Sequence record: OQ703102.1
Length of the DNA: 40,875 nt
Reading direction: 5' to 3' (one strand)
From: Escherichia phage vB_EcoP-R1
Shown here: in pieces, positions 17,959 through 36,466 of the stretch
How the letters are laid out: every line of letters starts with the position of its first letter
How positions within the stretch are numbered: the first letter of the stretch is position 1
Made by a program: the position numbers and the translations under genes
The notes under the pieces: model-generated
Told to the model about the DNA's origin: nothing
Databases searched by the model: none
What the model saw: only the letters and a program-made list of their open reading frames with translations

Positions 17959-18117
17959 ATGGCAAAGACCAAAGCTGTACTTAAAGCTCTGGCGACCAAT
18001 CGAGCTACATACAGGTTTCTTGCTGCTGTTCTACTTGCTGCTGGCGTTACTGCTGGAAGTAAGTGGGTCGGGTGGGTCGAGACTCTCGTATGTTCTCTGG
18101 TGTCTCAGTGTAATTAA
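17959..18117 (+). CDS. Small hydrophobic protein (gp19.5 position)
   Basis: 52 aa MAKTKAVLKALATNRATYRFLAAVLLAAGVTAGSKWVGWVETLVCSLVSQCN with RBS AGGAGGT 8 nt upstream; below the track size cutoff. Confidence 0.4.
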   Translation: MAKTKAVLKALATNRATYRFLAAVLLAAGVTAGSKWVGWVETLVCSLVSQCN

Positions 18118-18150
18118 CGCAATCATGGTAACGATTCATGAGCGGAAGAC

Positions 18151-18193
18151 CTAAGGTCAGTACGTGGATAAAGACTCACTCTACTGACCTTAG
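18151..18193 (+). repeat. Perfect 12-bp inverted repeat (CTAAGGTCAGTA / TACTGACCTTAG) forming a hairpin in the right-end unique region
   Basis: Read directly from the sequence; arms separated by 19 nt. Confidence 0.6.
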
Positions 18194-18355
18194 CTACTGT
18201 AGTCAAGGACTTTAGGTAACACCTTAATAGAAGCTCACCTAGGGTCATCCTACTTATTGGTCTATCCTAGTGTCGCCTGACCTACGGTCCTTGACCTACA
18301 GTAGCTGCCACCTACGGTCACTCGATGAGTTTTGGACCAAAAGTTTGAGACCACA

Positions 18356-18550
18356 TCTCACAGTTCAAGAACCTCAAGTCTCCCCATAGGCCCTCTTTCA
18401 GTCCAGACCAAAGGCCCTACCCCAGTCTATCATAAGGTTAGACCGATGGTCAAGACGTTAGGTCAACGATAGGTCTAGGCTATGGCTTAGGGAAGGACGA
18501 TAGGTAGGGACTATGGGTCTGTCTCTGAGTCTCTATCTGTATAGTGATAT
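18356..18550 (+). repeat. Genome terminal repeat region (single copy at the joined right-end/left-end junction)
   Basis: TCTCACAGTTCAAGAACCTCAAGTCTCCCCATAGG... closely resembles the first bases of the T7 left end (TCTCACAGTGTACGGACCTAAAGT...); the stretch ...GTCTCTGAGTCTCTATCTGT near 18520-18540 resembles the end of the T7 terminal repeat. Boundaries approximate. Confidence 0.5.
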
Positions 18551-18571
18551 AGTATAACATTACGTCCTACA

Positions 18572-18660
18572 CCTACAGTCTGACTAACCTACAGTCTGAC
18601 TAACCTACAGTATCAACCATAAGACACCAACACCTACAGTCAAAGACCTACAGCTAATAG
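18572..18660 (+). repeat. Short direct repeats built on CCTACAG (including a 16-bp tandem CCTACAGTCTGACTAA x2)
   Basis: Read directly; analogous in position to the CCTAAAG-type repeats next to the T7 terminal repeat. Confidence 0.6.
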
Positions 18661-18767
18661 ACACAAAGCTATAGACTTAAGGTCAGAGACATGTTAGTCA
18701 AAGACTATATCCTATTACTCACCATGGGGCCGACGATAGCTCAATCAATATTATTTAAGATTACCTA

Positions 18768-18796
18768 TTGACTACAGGTCCAGACTATGGCTTAAT
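18768..18796 (+). promoter_or_regulatory. Host sigma70-type early promoter (A1-like)
   Basis: TTGACT - 17 bp - CTTAAT with AT-rich upstream element; resembles T7 A1 (TTGACT...GATACT). Confidence 0.45.
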
Positions 18797-18908
18797 AGCT
18801 TCCGTCAACACGACACGGCAACAACCGGATAGTGAAGACGCCGGGTCATCCCGGTTAAGTAGACAGCCTGATAAGTCATACGAACAACAGGCAGATGACA
18901 GAAAGTAG

Positions 18909-18938
18909 TTGACAAGATGTACCGACTTAAAGTAGTAT
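18909..18938 (+). promoter_or_regulatory. Host sigma70-type early promoter (A3-like)
   Basis: GTTGACAAGATGTACCGACTTAAAGTAGTATGTACCACATCAAC resembles T7 A3; -35 TTGACA, -10 TAGTAT with 18-bp spacer. Confidence 0.5.
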
Positions 18939-19463: not shown

Positions 19464-19967
19464 ATGGAACGCAACGCTAACGCATACTATGAGCTGCTGG
19501 CTGCAACCGTTGAGGCATTTATCGAGCGTATTCAGTACGACCACCTGACTAAAGATGACGACTACAGCGATGCGCTGCATGAGGTCGTAGACGGTCAGGT
19601 CCCGCTCTATTACCACGAGATTTTCACGGTGATGGCTGCTGATGGTATAGACCACGAGTTCGAAGACTCTGGGCTGATGCCTGAAACCAAGGACGTAACG
19701 CGTATCCTACAAGCTCGCATCTATGAGGCACTTTATAACGACGTGTCTAATAGCTTGGATGTAGTCTGGTTTGAGGATGAAGAGGCAGACGAAGAGGATG
19801 AATATTGGGTAGTTGACGCTAAAACAGGCGCAATAATTGTGCAATCTGTAGCTCTTGAGGTCGCTACTGCATGTGCCGAGGTCAACTATGCGGCAGGTCG
19901 CCACCTGAAGGTGGAAGACATCAATGATAACGTAGTGTTCGACCCTGCGGCTGAGGACTGCGAGTGA
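19464..19967 (+). CDS. 0.3: Ocr-like anti-restriction DNA mimic (gp0.3 homolog) with a C-terminal extension of about 50 aa
   Basis: 167 aa; ...[54 protein letters not shown]... parallels T7 Ocr (...[46 protein letters not shown]...); acidic run [12 protein letters not shown], then extra non-acidic sequence absent from T7 Ocr (117 aa). Confidence 0.85.
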
Positions 19968-26882: not shown

Positions 26883-27080
26883 GTGGTGCCGGGAGATGTA
26901 CGAGAAGACTCTCAACCCGGACTACATTACGTTATACAACCAATGGAAGGAGCGTGGTTTATGAACCAAGACCAGATTAACTTTGTGTGTCAGCTTATTA
27001 AGGAGTTCGTGGACTTCACTGATTTATCCGAAGAGGAACTTGTTAAGCTGGAAGAGATTCTCGACAAGGAGGTTTTATGA
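26883..27080 (+). CDS. Small acidic hypothetical protein (start uncertain; likely ATG 26961)
   Basis: Track ORF begins at a GTG; an internal ATG at 26961 with RBS AAGGAG gives a 39-aa product [39 protein letters not shown]. Confidence 0.3.
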
Positions 27081-27235
27081 CTGAGGTTGAGAAGAAGTAC
27101 ATCGTGGAGCTTGAGGGACGCGTTCAGTCCTTCGAGGTTCCGTTGTACGCAAAGTCTCTTGAAGAGGCTACCCTGAAGTCCCAAGAGTATGAGGACGCTG
27201 GTTTTGTGGTCGGTCGGATTCGTCCTGAGGCCTAA
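27077..27235 (+). CDS. 2: Host RNA polymerase inhibitor (gp2 homolog)
   Basis: 52 aa [52 protein letters not shown]; resembles T7 gp2 (...[34 protein letters not shown]); below the track cutoff. Confidence 0.7.
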
Positions 27236-31614: not shown

Positions 31615-32046
31615 ATGAGGACTTGTAGTAGATGTGGCTCTACAAAGGAGTCCACTGAGTTCAGGAAGACAAATGGGTGGTGCATATCCTGTGTTCGTGA
31701 GGATAATAGGTCGCGATATCATCGAAACAAAGGTACAGAGGCCGGTGAGGCGCATCGCCTATCTGCCCGTAAGTCTTGGCTTAAGAAAGCCTATGGTCTC
31801 ACACTTGAGGAATATGACACTATGTTCGATAGTCAAAAGGGCAGATGCGCTATATGCTCAGACATTATCTTCAAGCATGGGTCTATTGAGAGTAAGAATA
31901 ATGTAGCCCACGTTGACCATTGCCATGACTCAGGTATTGTTAGGGGATTGCTATGTGGTACATGTAATAGCGCACTTGGTAAGTTCGGTGACAAGGTAGC
32001 CGTGCTTAGGGCTGCTATAACGTACTTGGAGAAATATAATGTTTAA
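31615..32046 (+). CDS. HNH endonuclease, endonuclease VII-type (putative homing endonuclease)
   Basis: 143 aa; Cys-rich N-terminus (CSRCGS...CISC) plus CAICSD...HVDHCHDSGIVRGLLCGTCNSALG, the typical endonuclease-VII/HNH zinc-binding core. Confidence 0.8.
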   Translation: MRTCSRCGSTKESTEFRKTNGWCISCVREDNRSRYHRNKGTEAGEAHRLSARKSWLKKAYGLTLEEYDTMFDSQKGRCAICSDIIFKHGSIESKNNVAHVDHCHDSGIVRGLLCGTCNSALGKFGDKVAVLRAAITYLEKYNV

Positions 32047-34210
32047 TCTCAACTCATTCTATGGCACAGATATAGAGACTGACGGTCTACTAGACACTGT
32101 GTCACAGTTCCATTGTGGTGTTATCATTAACGCTGGAACTCAGGCTACTGAGAAATATGGTGTTGCCCCTATGACTGGGCTGACAGGTGGATTCAAAGAG
32201 TACATAGACCGCATAGAATCTATTATGGCATCCACTGACGGTATGCTGGTTCTGCACAATGGTGTGAACTATGATATACCAGCCTTGAAAATACTGAAGA
32301 AGAAATACTTTGGTAAGAACCTAAATGTGAATAAGGGTCGAATTATTGATACCTTGGTACTTGGTCGCTTGATGTATCCAAACATTAAGTTCTCAGACAT
32401 GGGCGCGGTGAAAGCTGGTCGTCTGCCACCTAAGATGATGGGACGCCAGTCTCTTGAGGCTTGGGGCTATCGTCTCGGTGAGATGAAAGGTGAGTACAAA
32501 CACGATTACGTTGCCAAGTGCAAGGCTGAAGGTATCGAATATAAGGCTGGGGACGAATGGTTGTTCCCGTCTCAGGAGATGCTGGACTATAACGTTCAAG
32601 ACGTTGTGGTCACACTGGCGTTGTTCAAGAAGTTCCTGACTGACAAGTATTACTTCCAGTCTGAACAGTTTGCTTTCGACCAGATTTATGCGTTGCGTCT
32701 GGAACATGATGCTGCGTGGACCTGTGCGAAGATGGAGCGTAACGGCTATCCGATGAACACCGAGATGGTCGAAGGCTTATATCGTGAACTCACCGTCAAA
32801 CGTGCAGAGTTGTTGGACAAGCTGCGTTCGACTTTCGGTAGCTGGTATGCACCAAAGGGAGGCAAGGAGTTCTTCAAGCACCCACGGACAGGCAAGGACC
32901 TTCCGAAGTATCCGCGAGTCGTGTATCCTAGGGTCGGGTCAGTATTCAAGAAGCCGAAGAACAAAGCTCAACGCTTAGGTCTGGAGCCTTGCGAGTTCGA
33001 CTCACGAGACACGATGGAAGGAGCACCGTTCACGCCAATCACTTACGTTGAGTTTAATCCGGGAAGCGGAGACCACTTAGCGAAAGTCTTGATGGAGCGT
33101 GGTTGGGAGCCTGTGGACTTCACTGACACTGGGAAACCTGTAGTAGATGACGAGACGTTAGAACACGTTAAGCTACCAGACGCAGAGGCTCAGGCTTGCG
33201 TAGAGCTGGTCCGTGAGTATCTGGTAGTCCAGAAGCGCATCGGTCAGGCGGCTGAAGGTAAGAACGCATGGTTGAAACTTGTAGGTCCAGACGGACGTAT
33301 GCACGGTTCAATCAACCCATGCGGTGCAGTAACAGGACGTGCGACTCATAGTTCACCAAACATGGCTCAGGTCCCTGCTAACGGTGCTCCGTATGGTGAG
33401 ATTTGCCGTGGTGCTTTCGGTGCAGCTTGGAACAAGACGGATGGTAAGCCAGACCCTTGGATTCAAGTGGGTGTGGATGCTTCAGGTCTTGAGCTTCGTT
33501 GTCTGGGGAACCGAGCAGCTCCGTTTGATGGTGGTGCCTATGCGAAGACTGTGGTCGAAGGTGACATCCACTGGGCCAACGCAGTAAACGCTGGTTTAGC
33601 ACCTAACGTCCCACGCGATAAATCGAGCCACGACCATGATGCTTTCCGTAACAACGCTAAGACGTTCATCTATGCGTTCCTGTATGGTGCAGGGGCCGCT
33701 AAGATTGGACTGATAGTCGGCGGTGGTAAGAAGGAAGGTTCAGCTCTCATGAAGAAATTCATTGAGGGTACACCAGCCATCAAAGACCTCAGGGAAGCTG
33801 TGAGTAATACGTTAATCTCAGACTCTAAGTGGGTAGATGGTGAGAACATCGTTAAGTGGAAACGCCGTTGGCTGCGTGGACTTGACGGTCGCCGTATCCA
33901 CATCCGGTCGCCACACTCAGCACTGAACGCCTTACTTCAAGGTGACGGTGCGGTAGTCTGTAAGCACTGGATGGTACTGACGGAGAAGAAACTTGAGGAA
34001 GCTGGCTACGGTAATGGCTGGGATGGTGACTTTGCGCTAATGGCTTGGATTCACGACGAATTGCAGATTGCGTGTCGTACTCAGGAGATTGCCGAAGAAG
34101 TCGTCCGTATTGCACAAGAAGCAATGCGTGAGGTAGGACGTTTTTATAACTTCAAGTGTGATCTTGATACGGAGGGTAAGATTGGACCAACGTGGAAAGA
34201 GTGTCACTGA
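32039..34210 (+). CDS. 5: DNA polymerase, family A (gp5 homolog)
   Basis: 723 aa; ...SQFHCGVII, LEAWGYRLGEMKGEYK, DYNVQDVVVT, HPRTGK.LPKYPR, FKKPKNKAQR, GAVTGRATHS.PN.AQ.P, DASGLELRCLG, KTFIYAFLYGAG, KRRWL.GLDGR..H.RSPH.ALN.LLQ, GWDGDFA.MAW.HDE.Q parallel T7 gp5. Confidence 0.97.
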   Translation: MFNLNSFYGTDIETDGLLDTVSQFHCGVIINAGTQATEKYGVAPMTGLTGGFKEYIDRIESIMASTDGMLVLHNGVNYDIPALKILKKKYFGKNLNVNKGRIIDTLVLGRLMYPNIKFSDMGAVKAGRLPPKMMGRQSLEAWGYRLGEMKGEYKHDYVAKCKAEGIEYKAGDEWLFPSQEMLDYNVQDVVVTLALFKKFLTDKYYFQSEQFAFDQIYALRLEHDAAWTCAKMERNGYPMNTEMVEGLYRELTVKRAELLDKLRSTFGSWYAPKGGKEFFKHPRTGKDLPKYPRVVYPRVGSVFKKPKNKAQRLGLEPCEFDSRDTMEGAPFTPITYVEFNPGSGDHLAKVLMERGWEPVDFTDTGKPVVDDETLEHVKLPDAEAQACVELVREYLVVQKRIGQAAEGKNAWLKLVGPDGRMHGSINPCGAVTGRATHSSPNMAQVPANGAPYGEICRGAFGAAWNKTDGKPDPWIQVGVDASGLELRCLGNRAAPFDGGAYAKTVVEGDIHWANAVNAGLAPNVPRDKSSHDHDAFRNNAKTFIYAFLYGAGAAKIGLIVGGGKKEGSALMKKFIEGTPAIKDLREAVSNTLISDSKWVDGENIVKWKRRWLRGLDGRRIHIRSPHSALNALLQGDGAVVCKHWMVLTEKKLEEAGYGNGWDGDFALMAWIHDELQIACRTQEIAEEVVRIAQEAMREVGRFYNFKCDLDTEGKIGPTWKECH

Positions 34211-34241
34211 CCCTCGAACCAAGACCTTGCGCTTCCACACA

Positions 34242-34535
34242 ATGCCTACTGGATGTATCGTCTGCGTGTCCCACAAGAGGAACCAAGATGGATACTTCCG
34301 GTATTCTATGGGAAGCTACAGGAAGGGCAACAAGTTCGCCTTCATGTTTCACAGATGGGTGTGGGAACAGAAGCGCGGACCTATACCGGATGGCTATGAG
34401 ATAGACCATTTGTGTTTGAATCGTGGGTGCTGTAACGTAGAACATCTACAATGTATTCCAAAGCGTGATCACGTCATCAAGACGAACCGTGAGCGCAAAC
34501 TTATTAAGAAGGAGAAGACTAATGGCTATTACTAA
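34242..34535 (+). CDS. HNH endonuclease (gene 5.3 position)
   Basis: 97 aa from ATG 34242 (track ORF 34158..34535 starts inside DNAP); ...GYFRYSMGSYRKGNKFAFMFHRWVWEQKRGPIPDGYEIDHLCLNRGCCNVEHLQCIPKRDH...N is a classic HNH core. Confidence 0.75.
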   Translation: MPTGCIVCVSHKRNQDGYFRYSMGSYRKGNKFAFMFHRWVWEQKRGPIPDGYEIDHLCLNRGCCNVEHLQCIPKRDHVIKTNRERKLIKKEKTNGYY

Positions 34536-34806
34536 ACGTATTCGTGTAAGTTTCGACCTGAAGATGGTTGTCAGCTCAAAGGAAGAAGATACCATGTGTC
34601 GCCAACTGGCTGAGATGACTAAAGCCTACGCTGAGGGTGAGAAGCTGGATGGACTTCAGGTGGCTATGGTCAAAGCAGCAATCGAGTCAGGCCCTGAGTC
34701 TGCCCTTGAAATTGCCCTCAAGAAGACCATCAAGGAGGAGCTGGTAGACGCCTTTGGTGATGACCAGTTCGGAGTATCTAACCTGCGATTCGAGGTCAAG
34801 CAATGA
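34522..34806 (+). CDS. 5.5: gp5.5-position protein
   Basis: 94 aa from ATG 34522 (MAITKRIRVSFDLK...); N-terminus resembles T7 gp5.5 as I recall it; start overlaps the HNH gene end. Confidence 0.55.
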   Translation: MAITKRIRVSFDLKMVVSSKEEDTMCRQLAEMTKAYAEGEKLDGLQVAMVKAAIESGPESALEIALKKTIKEELVDAFGDDQFGVSNLRFEVKQ

Positions 34807-35012
34807 GTGAATACTTACGGGTCCTAGCGGCCCTTAAGTCCTGCCCGAAGACCTTCCAGTCTAACTATGTGCGCAACAACGCTGCACTTGTGGCTGAGGC
34901 TGCGAGTCGTGGACATCTAAGCTGCCTGTCTATGGATGGGCGTAACAACGGTGCGTGGGAAATTACCGCTGCTGGCACCAAGTTCCTGAACCAACACGGA
35001 GGCTGTCTATGA
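34803..35012 (+). CDS. 5.7: gp5.7-position protein
   Basis: 69 aa, same length as T7 gp5.7; ...KSCPKTFQSNYVRNNAALVAEAASRGH...; assigned by position and size. Confidence 0.6.
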   Translation: MSEYLRVLAALKSCPKTFQSNYVRNNAALVAEAASRGHLSCLSMDGRNNGAWEITAAGTKFLNQHGGCL

Positions 35013-35458
35013 AGATACCTGAAAGTCTGAAAGAGCTGGTCCTTGACATGGGTGAGTGCGAGAAGGAGCACCGCAAGTACGCTGAGTTCTACGCATCTTG
35101 GTCATACACCTTGACAGAGAAGGACGTTGAGTCATACACCGAGTCTCCCGCTGAGGCTTATGAGTGGCGTCCATTCATCGGACTGACCATCGTAGCTAGC
35201 GGTATGTGGGATGACAGATACGGTTCAGAGGTAAACGACTGGGACGTGTGCCGCCAAGTTGAGAAGGAGACTGAGATGTCTTCAAACTTCTGGAACCTGA
35301 TGTCACACCTAAACTCAGAGGACAACGACAAGGCCCATGAGTTCGCCAACAAATGGCTGAAGCCTGAGGTGACTCTCGAACGTATAGAGGAGCCGAAAGT
35401 GCCCTTGATGCCATATGTAGTCGCTATGGCTACAGGAGGTCTGGACGATGGGTGCTGA
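35009..35458 (+). CDS. Acidic hypothetical protein at the gene 5.9 position (much longer than T7 gp5.9)
   Basis: 149 aa from ATG 35009 (overlaps the 5.7 stop as ATGA); Glu/Asp-rich; T7 gp5.9 is 52 aa. Confidence 0.5.
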   Translation: MKIPESLKELVLDMGECEKEHRKYAEFYASWSYTLTEKDVESYTESPAEAYEWRPFIGLTIVASGMWDDRYGSEVNDWDVCRQVEKETEMSSNFWNLMSHLNSEDNDKAHEFANKWLKPEVTLERIEEPKVPLMPYVVAMATGGLDDGC

Positions 35459-36317
35459 GAAGAAGATAGCTCTTGTTCTTGATGGCGATTACCTAGTATT
35501 CTCTTCTATGGCTGCTGCCGAGGACGAGACAGACTGGGGTGATGACATCTGGACCCTTATCTGCGACCATGAGAAGGCTCGCCGTATCCTTGAGAACACC
35601 ATCGCTGAAATCGTTAAGAAGCGCAAGGCGTGGAAAGACGCTAAGATTGTGATGTGCTTCACCGACGATTACAACTGGCGTAAGGACGTACTTCCTACCT
35701 ATAAGGCTAACCGTAAGGGTTCTCGCAAGCCTGTAGGTTACAAGAAGTTCGTAGCCGAAGTGATGGCTGACCCACGGTTCAACAGCTTCCTGCGTCCCAC
35801 GCTTGAGGGTGATGACTGTATGGGTATCATCGGGACCAGACCTCAGATTGTCGGATGTGACCATGCGGTTCTGGTGTCCTGTGATAAGGACTTCAAGACC
35901 ATACCGAACTGTGAGTTCTTCTGGTTGACCACTGGTGAAATCCTGAGTCATACGACTGCTGAGGCAGACTACTGGCACATGGAGCAGACCATCAAGGGCG
36001 ATACTACAGATGGCTACGGCGGGATTCCGGGGATGGGTGAGGACACCACTCGTGCGTTCCTTGACGAGCCGTACTACTTCGTTCAGGAGAGCCGTGAGCT
36101 TAAGACTGGTAAGAACAAAGGCCAGATTAAGACTGAGTGGAAGAAGTATCCGAAGCGTGAAGACATGACGCTGTGGGACTGCATGGTTACACTGGCTGCT
36201 AAGGCTGGCATGACCGAGGAGGAACTTCTGGTCCAAGCTCAGGTCGCTCGTATTTGTCGAGCCTCCGACTACGACCCTAAGTCCAAGGAGGTCATCCTAT
36301 GGACACCATCCATGTAA
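35448..36317 (+). CDS. 6: 5-prime to 3-prime exonuclease (gp6 homolog)
   Basis: 289 aa; ...WRKDVLPTYKANRK...KPVGY..F......LEGDD.MG.I......VSCDKDFKTIPNCEFFW.TTG.IL...DYWH...QTIKGD.TDGY.GI.G...KTGKNKGQ...TLWDC....AKAGMTEE parallel T7 gp6. Confidence 0.92.
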   Translation: MGAEKKIALVLDGDYLVFSSMAAAEDETDWGDDIWTLICDHEKARRILENTIAEIVKKRKAWKDAKIVMCFTDDYNWRKDVLPTYKANRKGSRKPVGYKKFVAEVMADPRFNSFLRPTLEGDDCMGIIGTRPQIVGCDHAVLVSCDKDFKTIPNCEFFWLTTGEILSHTTAEADYWHMEQTIKGDTTDGYGGIPGMGEDTTRAFLDEPYYFVQESRELKTGKNKGQIKTEWKKYPKREDMTLWDCMVTLAAKAGMTEEELLVQAQVARICRASDYDPKSKEVILWTPSM

Positions 36318-36443: not shown

Positions 36444-36466
36444 ACTAAACTATCACTATAGGGACT
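36444..36466 (+). promoter_or_regulatory. Phage RNAP promoter (phi6.5-like)
   Basis: CACTAAACTATCACTATAGGGAC; +1 G at 36461; followed by an inverted-repeat leader (GACTTTAGGACC...GACTTTAGTC). Confidence 0.8.

Follow-up and report, generated by a model that had tools for sequence, protein, structure and literature searches.

The genome of Escherichia phage vB_EcoP-R1 (sequence record OQ703102.1), whose 40,875 nucleotides (nt) are referred to here as the window, contains a 149-codon open reading frame (ORF) on the plus strand, ORF X, between the genes for a gp5.7 homologue and the gene 6 exonuclease. Phage T7 has the same arrangement, with the gene order 5.5, 5.7, 5.9 and 6, and a preliminary description of this DNA had pointed out that X is a Glu/Asp-rich protein much longer than the RecBCD inhibitor gp5.9 found at this position in T7. 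Its statements on position, size and composition were borne out: X lies between 5.7 and 6 and overlaps the start of gene 6 as T7 gp5.9 does, it has 149 amino acids (aa) where T7 gp5.9 has 52, and its 21 Glu and 10 Asp (20.8%) against 15 Lys plus Arg (10.1%) give a net charge of -16 and an isoelectric point (pI) of 4.47. Among the real ORFs of the window only those for an Ocr homologue and gp2 are more acidic, and this property is kept across the X family (pI 4.2-4.8 in all 49 members examined). The frame runs from an ATG at 35009-35011 to a TGA at 35456-35458; its start codon overlaps the stop codon of gp5.7 in the sequence ATGA (35009-35012), with a GGAGG Shine-Dalgarno (SD) sequence 6 nt upstream of the ATG, and its 3' end overlaps gene 6, which starts at 35448, by 11 nt.

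X is a real, constrained gene and no chance reading frame. Pairwise ratios of nonsynonymous to synonymous substitution (dN/dS) of 0.08-0.21, obtained from seven alleles over residues 1-127, reveal purifying selection, and at least 54 related phages have the frame in intact form; it is kept at full length across genera down to ~25% identity. Homologues are present in Kayfunavirus, Przondovirus, Jarilovirus, Aarhusvirus, Providencia phages and Ounavirinae, with 43% identity in the Klebsiella Przondovirus phages and ~30% in the 90-kilobase (kb) Ounavirinae. A longer, GTG-started frame from 34955 was rejected as the gene, since homologues and annotations start at MKIPESLK. No phage promoter-like or terminator-like site was found between gene 5 and the promoter-like sequence TCACTATAGG at 36453, so X is placed in the class II transcription unit that encodes the polymerase and the exonuclease.

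The family to which X belongs, PHROG 4382 (E value 4.8e-46, with residues 1-130 of X on profile positions 6-129 of 130), also takes in Przondovirus, Suspvirus and short-form relatives of X; it has no recorded function and is catalogued as hypothetical in more than 170 phage records. No relatives of X were found in Pfam, NCBIfam or the sequences of the Protein Data Bank (PDB), fold matches in BFVD were exclusively members of the X family, and when 1.84 billion cluster representatives were searched exhaustively with HMMER, only 25 clusters related to X emerged. An AlphaFold2 (AF2) monomer model based on 49 family sequences, with a predicted local distance difference test (pLDDT) score of 79.4 overall and ~88 over residues 1-128, predicts a globular α/β domain of five strands and five short helices with the topology α1 β1 β2 α2 α3 β3 β4 α4 α5 β5, followed by a disordered tail (residues 129-149). 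The protein is a three-part mosaic that consists of an α/β domain specific to PHROG 4382, a helix-loop-helix segment called the H module here, and the disordered tail. The N-domain contains the family motifs E-x-EHRKYxEFY and GMWxDxxGxE, in which G65 and G72 are invariant and K23 is near-invariant, and it also stands alone in short forms of 104-117 aa, one of which (P0053) occupies the interval between 5.7 and 6 (the 5.7-6 slot). No enzyme signature or catalytic motif was found in X.

T7 gp5.9 inhibits RecBCD through DNA mimicry (PMC9836394) and also inhibits MukBEF (PMC7617805), and it is built from a strand at the N-terminus and a long helix through which it dimerises as a parallel coiled coil (PMC9836394). 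The preliminary description had suggested that X may be an expanded version of this protein and had named structure prediction as a check, but this proposal did not survive the comparison. X has no match to PF25708 (Phage_T7_Gp5_9), with hmmscan at E <= 1 giving only two chance hits, its hhalign alignment to T7 gp5.9 has a probability of 0.2%, and the AF2 model is a globular α/β domain and not a gp5.9-like parallel coiled coil. The PF25708 gathering threshold of 24.5 bits was exceeded by the positive controls, which were T7 gp5.9 (27.8 bits) and the proteins of loci L089 (62.8), L051 (62.3) and L024/GW1 (55.8) and of phage yong1 (36.1). Comparison of X with T7 gp5.9 by blastp and tblastn also gave nothing significant, so X was rejected as a direct homologue of T7 gp5.9 by blastp, tblastn and hhalign alike. 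A search of the window for any gp5.9-domain gene was negative, as T7 gp5.9 produced only noise in tblastn, divergent gp5.9-family queries produced no match and a hidden Markov model (HMM) of the W-domain reached a best E of 0.14. When T7 gp5.9 was compared with the phage collection by tblastn, 187 records matched; those listed were T7-, T3- and related Yersinia, Serratia and Salmonella phages, and none among the matches listed was named Kayfunavirus.

The part of the proposed gp5.9 link that stood is a 26-residue module which X has in common with long PF25708 proteins, even though the gp5.9 domain itself is absent from X. When the slot proteins were grouped by single-linkage clustering, X and T7 gp5.9 unexpectedly fell together, linked by intermediates. 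One of these, a 59-aa protein (L089) whose N-terminal 27 residues are 48% identical to T7 gp5.9 (phrog_9014, E 1.9e-8), terminates in the segment 'FLDALRACGVDNWDGY', and this segment is also present in a 66-aa protein of a Kayfunavirus (L024), which Cronobacter phage GW1 encodes in identical form, and in the yong1 and CLB_P1 proteins of 78 aa, annotated as 'gp5.8'. All of these proteins exceed the PF25708 threshold (36-63 bits), a precomputed PF25708 annotation is found on almost all of the 102 relatives identified in a 5.8-billion-protein collection, and long gp5.9-family forms also occur in Przondovirus P510. Judged by these profile matches, true gp5.9-family proteins occupy the 5.7-6 slot in some Kayfunaviruses. 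The N-terminus of the long gp5.9-family proteins reads 'LLKKFDxLMSHLNGEENxMAEEF', with several invariant residues, and this H stretch is mostly N-terminal to the PF25708 domain, with an overlap that covers only the first ~8 profile positions.

X contains the motif F-x-x-L-M-S-H-L-N-x-E-[ED]-N-x-M-A-x-E-F of the long gp5.9-family proteins (phrog_6163), and hhalign aligned it with them at a probability of 96.9% (E 1.7e-10, 50% identity over 26 columns) across X residues 90-115, the match ending at residue 115. An HMM of the H module found X at E 9e-8 as the sole match in the genome, and phrog_6163, the PHROG of the long gp5.9 forms, matches X weakly at the same residues (E 0.0024). These alignments show that X shares the H module with gp5.9-family proteins by homology, at the level of the module and not of family membership. 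DNA similarity between X and the long gp5.9-family genes is limited to a 17-nt patch, so the homology is an old one at the level of the protein and does not reflect recent recombination. The H module is also the best-conserved region of X; among 16 long-form proteins, mean pairwise identity is 0.51 in the module, 0.30 in the N-domain and 0.19 in the strand that follows. A stand-alone 42-aa ORF of phage ECBP5 (Gajwadongvirus; L105:1498-1626), which follows a tail protein gene and is annotated as 'putative tail spike protein', contains only the SHLN module (MLSNQELLEKFDELMSHLNSEDNSMAEEFRINLEEVLEYLVS) and may be either what is left of this module or its minimal version.

The genomic context of X varies among relatives to an extent that identifies the 5.7-6 junction as a cassette-exchange site with at least six states. 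The gp5.7 homologue is 77% identical to T7 gp5.7 and 100% identical to that of K1F, the type species, yet in K1F the slot is empty, as is characteristic of an accessory hotspot. The GGAGGCTGTCTATGA junction found in front of X in the window is also present in K1F but connects 5.7 directly with gene 6 there, so the left boundary of the cassette lies at 34998-35012. Neither an X-family gene nor a gp5.9-family gene was found in the K1F genome. Of 229 phage records matching the 5.7-X-6 segment at 80% identity or more, only 54 (~24%) carry X and the rest have a shorter insert or none. A set of 80 IMG/VR loci was collected with a gp5.7 profile and classified by the content between 5.7 and 6, with five loci that hold two or three cassettes counted in several classes. 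The slot was empty in 24 loci. SH4/IJM-type proteins (phrog_2251) occupied it in 23, and basic proteins of 54-58 aa (phrog_12303) in 16, in 11 of which they stood alone; acidic proteins of the ST34 type (phrog_18166) were present in eight and X-family or gp5.9-family proteins in 14, and one locus had no member of these cassette families. Besides the empty state, five unrelated types of cassette were distinguished. No locus of the 80 had X and a gp5.9-family gene together. Among complete genomes, X alone is present in the window and SUSP1, a gp5.9-family gene alone in yong1 and gp5.9 alone in T7, and K1F lacks both.

Besides Kayfunavirus, at least five further lineages of Studiervirinae have the X family in this slot, namely Przondovirus, Jarilovirus, Aarhusvirus, a Providencia phage and a divergent metagenomic T7-like contig, which has the short form with the N-domain only. 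Both the X and gp5.9 families are present in Studiervirinae and Ounavirinae, in different genera as sampled. In SUSP1 (Ounavirinae) the homologue of X has nrdG on one side and, on the other, a homing endonuclease that adjoins nrdD; in Kolesnikvirus a gp5.9-family gene follows pseT. Homology of X to the other slot cassettes was rejected, as hhalign gave 0.9% for the ST34-type protein and a match to the SH4-type protein (85.7%) that is confined to the tail. The slot protein of Salmonella phage ST34 (L008:507-839) matches phrog_2294, described as 'ribonucleotide reductase' (E 8.8e-9); because of this match and the position of the SUSP1 homologue between nrdD and nrdG, small acidic hotspot proteins seem to recur beside nrd genes in larger phages. 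In Przondovirus the slot often contains the phrog_12303 protein (pI 9.4), whose gene lies immediately upstream of gene 6 and is either the sole cassette or preceded by an X homologue, as in Klebsiella phage SH-Kp 152234 (L004:2371-2547); this protein is unrelated to gp5.9 despite its similar size and position.

The final 22 residues of X are PKVPLMPYVVAMATGGLDDGC, and the codons for T-G-G-L-D-D in this tail (ACAGGAGGTCTGGACGATG) include the gene 6 Shine-Dalgarno sequence and start codon. Unrelated slot cassettes have a similar tail, with SH4-type proteins ending in LAMAKGGLRDE or GGLDDGC. The tail is therefore a read-through of the ribosome-binding-site segment of gene 6. Many X alleles end in GGLDD[DEG]F, while the allele of the window ends in GC, and acidic Phe-terminated tails on gp2.5 and gp4 of the same genome resemble DD[DEG]F; because the X tail overlaps gene 6, this likeness is regarded as a by-product. 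A role of the tail in polymerase docking, of the type known for gp2.5 and gp4, was accordingly downgraded, given the gene 6 codons within it, its presence on unrelated cassettes, its predicted disorder and its GC end. The possibility that the tail is a truncated gp5.9 'GGVDNW' core was rejected, since the hhalign match stops at residue 115 and there is no DNA similarity past the gene 6 start. The ~60-nt segment upstream of gene 6 (35390-35458) thus encodes the C-terminus of X or of an SH4-type or ST34-type cassette, and a common ending '...P.L..A.VAMA.GGL.D' was observed across unrelated cassettes (loci L010, L031, L039, L091 and L100). This segment may mark where recombination bounds the cassettes on the right, or its conservation may serve the translation of gene 6.

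These observations can be assembled into a proposal for the function of X. Since K1F does without it, X is a dispensable accessory gene, co-transcribed and translationally coupled with the class II genes of DNA metabolism. Because it has neither a catalytic motif nor a relative of known fold, it would bind and block a host protein stoichiometrically, in a non-enzymatic manner. In T7, Ocr and gp2 are small acidic proteins that block host proteins, and by analogy we infer that X acts in this way by binding a host protein. X would replace gp5.9-type proteins instead of accompanying them, and since its most conserved element is shared with these proteins, its targets would be of the same class, host complexes that handle DNA or DNA ends. 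RecBCD would be the first candidate, and MukBEF the second because gp5.9 inhibits it too (PMC7617805). The H module would provide the common contact, and the N-domain would stand in for the coiled-coil DNA mimic. We regard it as an evenly balanced proposition that X is a host-directed binder that serves as a functional alternative to gp5.9-type proteins and targets a host DNA-end or DNA-handling complex; that this target is RecBCD specifically is possible but doubtful. It is also conceivable, on a distinctly speculative level, that the SHLNxEDN helix-loop-helix is a portable targeting module which directs differing effector domains (gp5.9 or PHROG 4382) to the same host complex, and that X represents a structurally novel kind of inhibitor, directed at RecBCD, MukBEF or some other DNA-end machine, which works without DNA mimicry and is swapped with gp5.9-type genes as an allelic cassette.

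Several observations weigh against X being a functional alternative to gp5.9. The slot also hosts basic and unrelated proteins and is often empty, so occupation of the same slot does not imply the same function and the position says little about it. The complementary distribution of X and gp5.9 comes from few genomes and is not corrected for kinship, and in Ounavirinae the X and gp5.9-family genes are at different places. The gp5.9 domain makes the contacts to RecBCD and MukE in solved complexes (PMC9836394, PMC7617805), and X, as read from its sequence, does not have this domain. T7 gp5.9 has no SHLN motif and only the last ~8 residues of the H stretch overlap the gp5.9 domain, which leaves the H module with no tie to RecBCD, and the short X-family forms are entirely without the module. 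The density of Chi sites is equal in phages with gp5.9, with X or with nothing in the slot and provides no support.

Other explanations of X have to be weighed against the same evidence. If X were an enlarged DNA-mimic gp5.9, its surface carboxylates would fill the DNA site of RecBCD or of another nuclease. The T7 gp5.9 slot, the net charge of -16 with a pI of 4.47, the acidity of the whole family and the absence of another gp5.9-type gene from the genome are all consistent with this, as is the great diversity of folds among DNA mimics (PMC9836394). In size and acidity X also compares with DNA-mimic proteins, which are small and strongly acidic (pI ~3-4.5), and would stand at the weak end of that class, but the profile and hhalign negatives and the predicted fold speak against an enlarged gp5.9, which we consider unlikely. 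A different possibility is that the slot is an anti-defence island and that X, with no role at RecBCD or MukBEF, counters another host immunity system or acts as a decoy or evader of gp5.9 sensing. The turnover of the slot, its unrelated small cassettes and their presence or absence among near-identical genomes fit this concept (bioRxiv 10.1101/2023.04.06.535777), the X family has a different neighbourhood in Ounavirinae, and the conserved H-R-K, W, D and E residues of the N-domain could form a ligand pocket like that of nucleotide sponges. However, X resembles no solved anti-defence protein in sequence or fold, its family was not found in the supplements of the accessory-gene screen searched, and the module shared with the gp5.9 family would be left unexplained, so this remains a minority possibility that we find rather doubtful.

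X might instead act on the metabolism of phage DNA, for instance as a modulator of the replisome or of the gene 6 exonuclease. Its place within the polymerase-exonuclease operon, to which it is translationally coupled, and that of the SUSP1 homologue among the nucleotide-metabolism genes nrdD and nrdG could be read in this way, and the GGLDD[DEG]F ends of other alleles recall the tails by which T7 gp2.5 and gp4 dock on the polymerase. Yet X is dispensable, as K1F lacks it, this allele ends in GC and not in F, the disordered tail is common to unrelated cassettes and explained by the gene 6 SD and ATG, and the H module is kept in phages with quite different replication proteins (Aeromonas and 53-kb phages), all of which makes such a role very unlikely. 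That X is a decaying or functionless remnant of cassette exchange is hardly credible; the tail is indeed read-through of regulatory sequence and odd alleles exist (P0031 with 91 aa and an internal deletion, L019 with 137 aa, and the 42-aa H-only ORF of ECBP5), but dN/dS of 0.08-0.21 over residues 1-127, the full-length frame in at least 54 genomes and across genera to ~25% identity, and the confident fold prediction are at odds with decay. A host-directed binder in place of gp5.9 is thus the reading that we carry forward, and X is best described as a candidate phage accessory host-interference gene at the gp5.9 locus, not as a demonstrated RecBCD inhibitor.

Table 1. Features of the window around ORF X, with two further genes for acidic proteins; coordinates are those of the window
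Feature	Coordinates	Strand	Remarks
Ocr (gp0.3) homologue	19464-19967		167 aa; PF08684
gp2 RNA-polymerase inhibitor	27077-27235		PF16857
Gene 5 DNA polymerase	32039-34210	+	
HNH endonuclease ORF	34158-34535	+	ATG at 34242; PF13392, E 2.4e-18
gp5.5-like H-NS inhibitor	34522-34806	+	phrog_1452
gp5.7 homologue	34803-35012	+	69 aa; phrog_1334; conserved left flank of slot
Translation-coupling junction	34998-35012	+	SD GGAGG 34998-35002, then ATGA 35009-35012
ORF X	35009-35458	+	149 aa plus stop; PHROG 4382 member
N-domain of X, residues 1-86	35009-35266	+	α1, β1, β2, α2, α3, β3, β4
H module of X, residues 90-115	35276-35353	+	MSSNFWNLMSHLNSEDNDKAHEFANK; helix-loop-helix, α4 89-100 and α5 107-116
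X residues 116-127	35354-35389	+	end of α5 and strand β5, which closes the fold; poorly conserved
C-terminal tail of X, residues 128-149	35390-35455	+	predicted disordered (pLDDT < 50 from residue 129)
Gene 6 SD and start codon	35435-35450	+	SD GGAGG 35435-35439, ATG 35448-35450; within X tail codons
Gene 6 5'-3' exonuclease	35448-36317	+	289 aa; conserved right flank of slot

The window is a complete, circularly permuted genome of a Kayfunavirus (K1F-like), as seen when the K1F genome ends were aligned with region 18011-18925; the physical ends lie at ~18356/18533, and the terminal repeat of ~180 base pairs (18356-18533) is present as a single copy. In nucleotide comparisons, the 2-kb region around X is 97.5% identical to Enterobacteria phage IME177, and the other best-matching records for the same 2 kb, mostly Kayfunavirus phages, are 88-96% identical. 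The HNH homing-endonuclease ORF overlaps the end of the polymerase gene and is wedged between gene 5 and gene 5.5; this segment is missing in many close relatives, whose matches begin at query position 107 or later, and in K1F an HNH gene is inside gene 5 instead.

Seven Chi sites (GCTGGTGG) are present in the window, three on the minus strand (2202, 6407 and 24443) and four on the plus strand (9349, 13235, 15473 and 40307), and the site nearest each physical end is oriented for RecBCD entering from that end. This is an excess over the ~1.4 sites expected from dinucleotide shuffles (0 of 300 reach seven), and the density is close to that of E. coli, which has roughly one site per 4.5 kb. The corresponding counts are seven in T7 (all on the plus strand), eight in K1F, seven in yong1 and only one in the 90-kb SUSP1. 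Chi density was rejected as a proxy for exposure to RecBCD, since the same excess is seen in T7, in K1F with its empty slot, and in yong1.

Motifs of the X family were not found in the papers searched or in the supplements of the accessory-gene screen, and the BASEL and AntiDefenseFinder papers do not mention the X gene. What is new here is the dissection of X into domains, the identification of the slot as a cassette-exchange site that includes true gp5.9-family proteins in Kayfunavirus, and the module shared by X and the gp5.9 family. In this way, a 'hypothetical protein' acquires a three-part architecture in which the shared 26-residue module is the hot spot. Were RecBCD or MukBEF the target of X, its fold would be a new one among inhibitors; otherwise the slot would be a counter-defence island of a general kind that merits screening. 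Phages of Kayfunavirus and Przondovirus are widely isolated for therapeutic use against E. coli, Salmonella and Klebsiella, and guard systems other than retron Ec48 also survey the status of RecBCD. Retron Ec48 itself responds to the presence of gp5.9 or λ Gam with abortive infection (PMC9836394). Because gp5.9 inhibits RecBCD and guards watch RecBCD, carrying gp5.9, X or nothing in the slot could decide both the sensitivity of a phage to RecBCD and the triggering of these guards.

Among known systems, T7 gp5.9 is similar to X in that it lies directly upstream of gene 6 and overlaps it, and in being small, acidic and non-essential, but X is two to three times longer and is without the 'GGVDNW' core; PF25708 proteins are typically ~50-80 aa, compared with 149 aa for X. 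X is itself one of the PHROG 4382 proteins, and the 22-residue tail is an addition of the Kayfunavirus clade. Ocr is an acidic, non-enzymatic inhibitor of host proteins encoded by the same phage as X, but it belongs to a family of all-helical dimers, is an early (class I) protein, and is more acidic than X and unrelated in sequence. The Ocr homologue of the window, an anti-restriction protein that mimics DNA, is ~50 residues longer than T7 Ocr (117 aa; T7 record 925-1278), and the Pfam ocr domain covers its residues 8-95, with a C-terminal extension of ~70 residues outside the domain. Lambda Gam is an all-helical dimer, and P22 Abc2 binds RecC and needs PpiB. Gam is small and acidic like X and Abc2 is small like X, but neither has sequence or fold similarity to it. 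Both are small phage proteins that bind RecBCD, and they illustrate that unrelated folds can do this job (PMC9836394).

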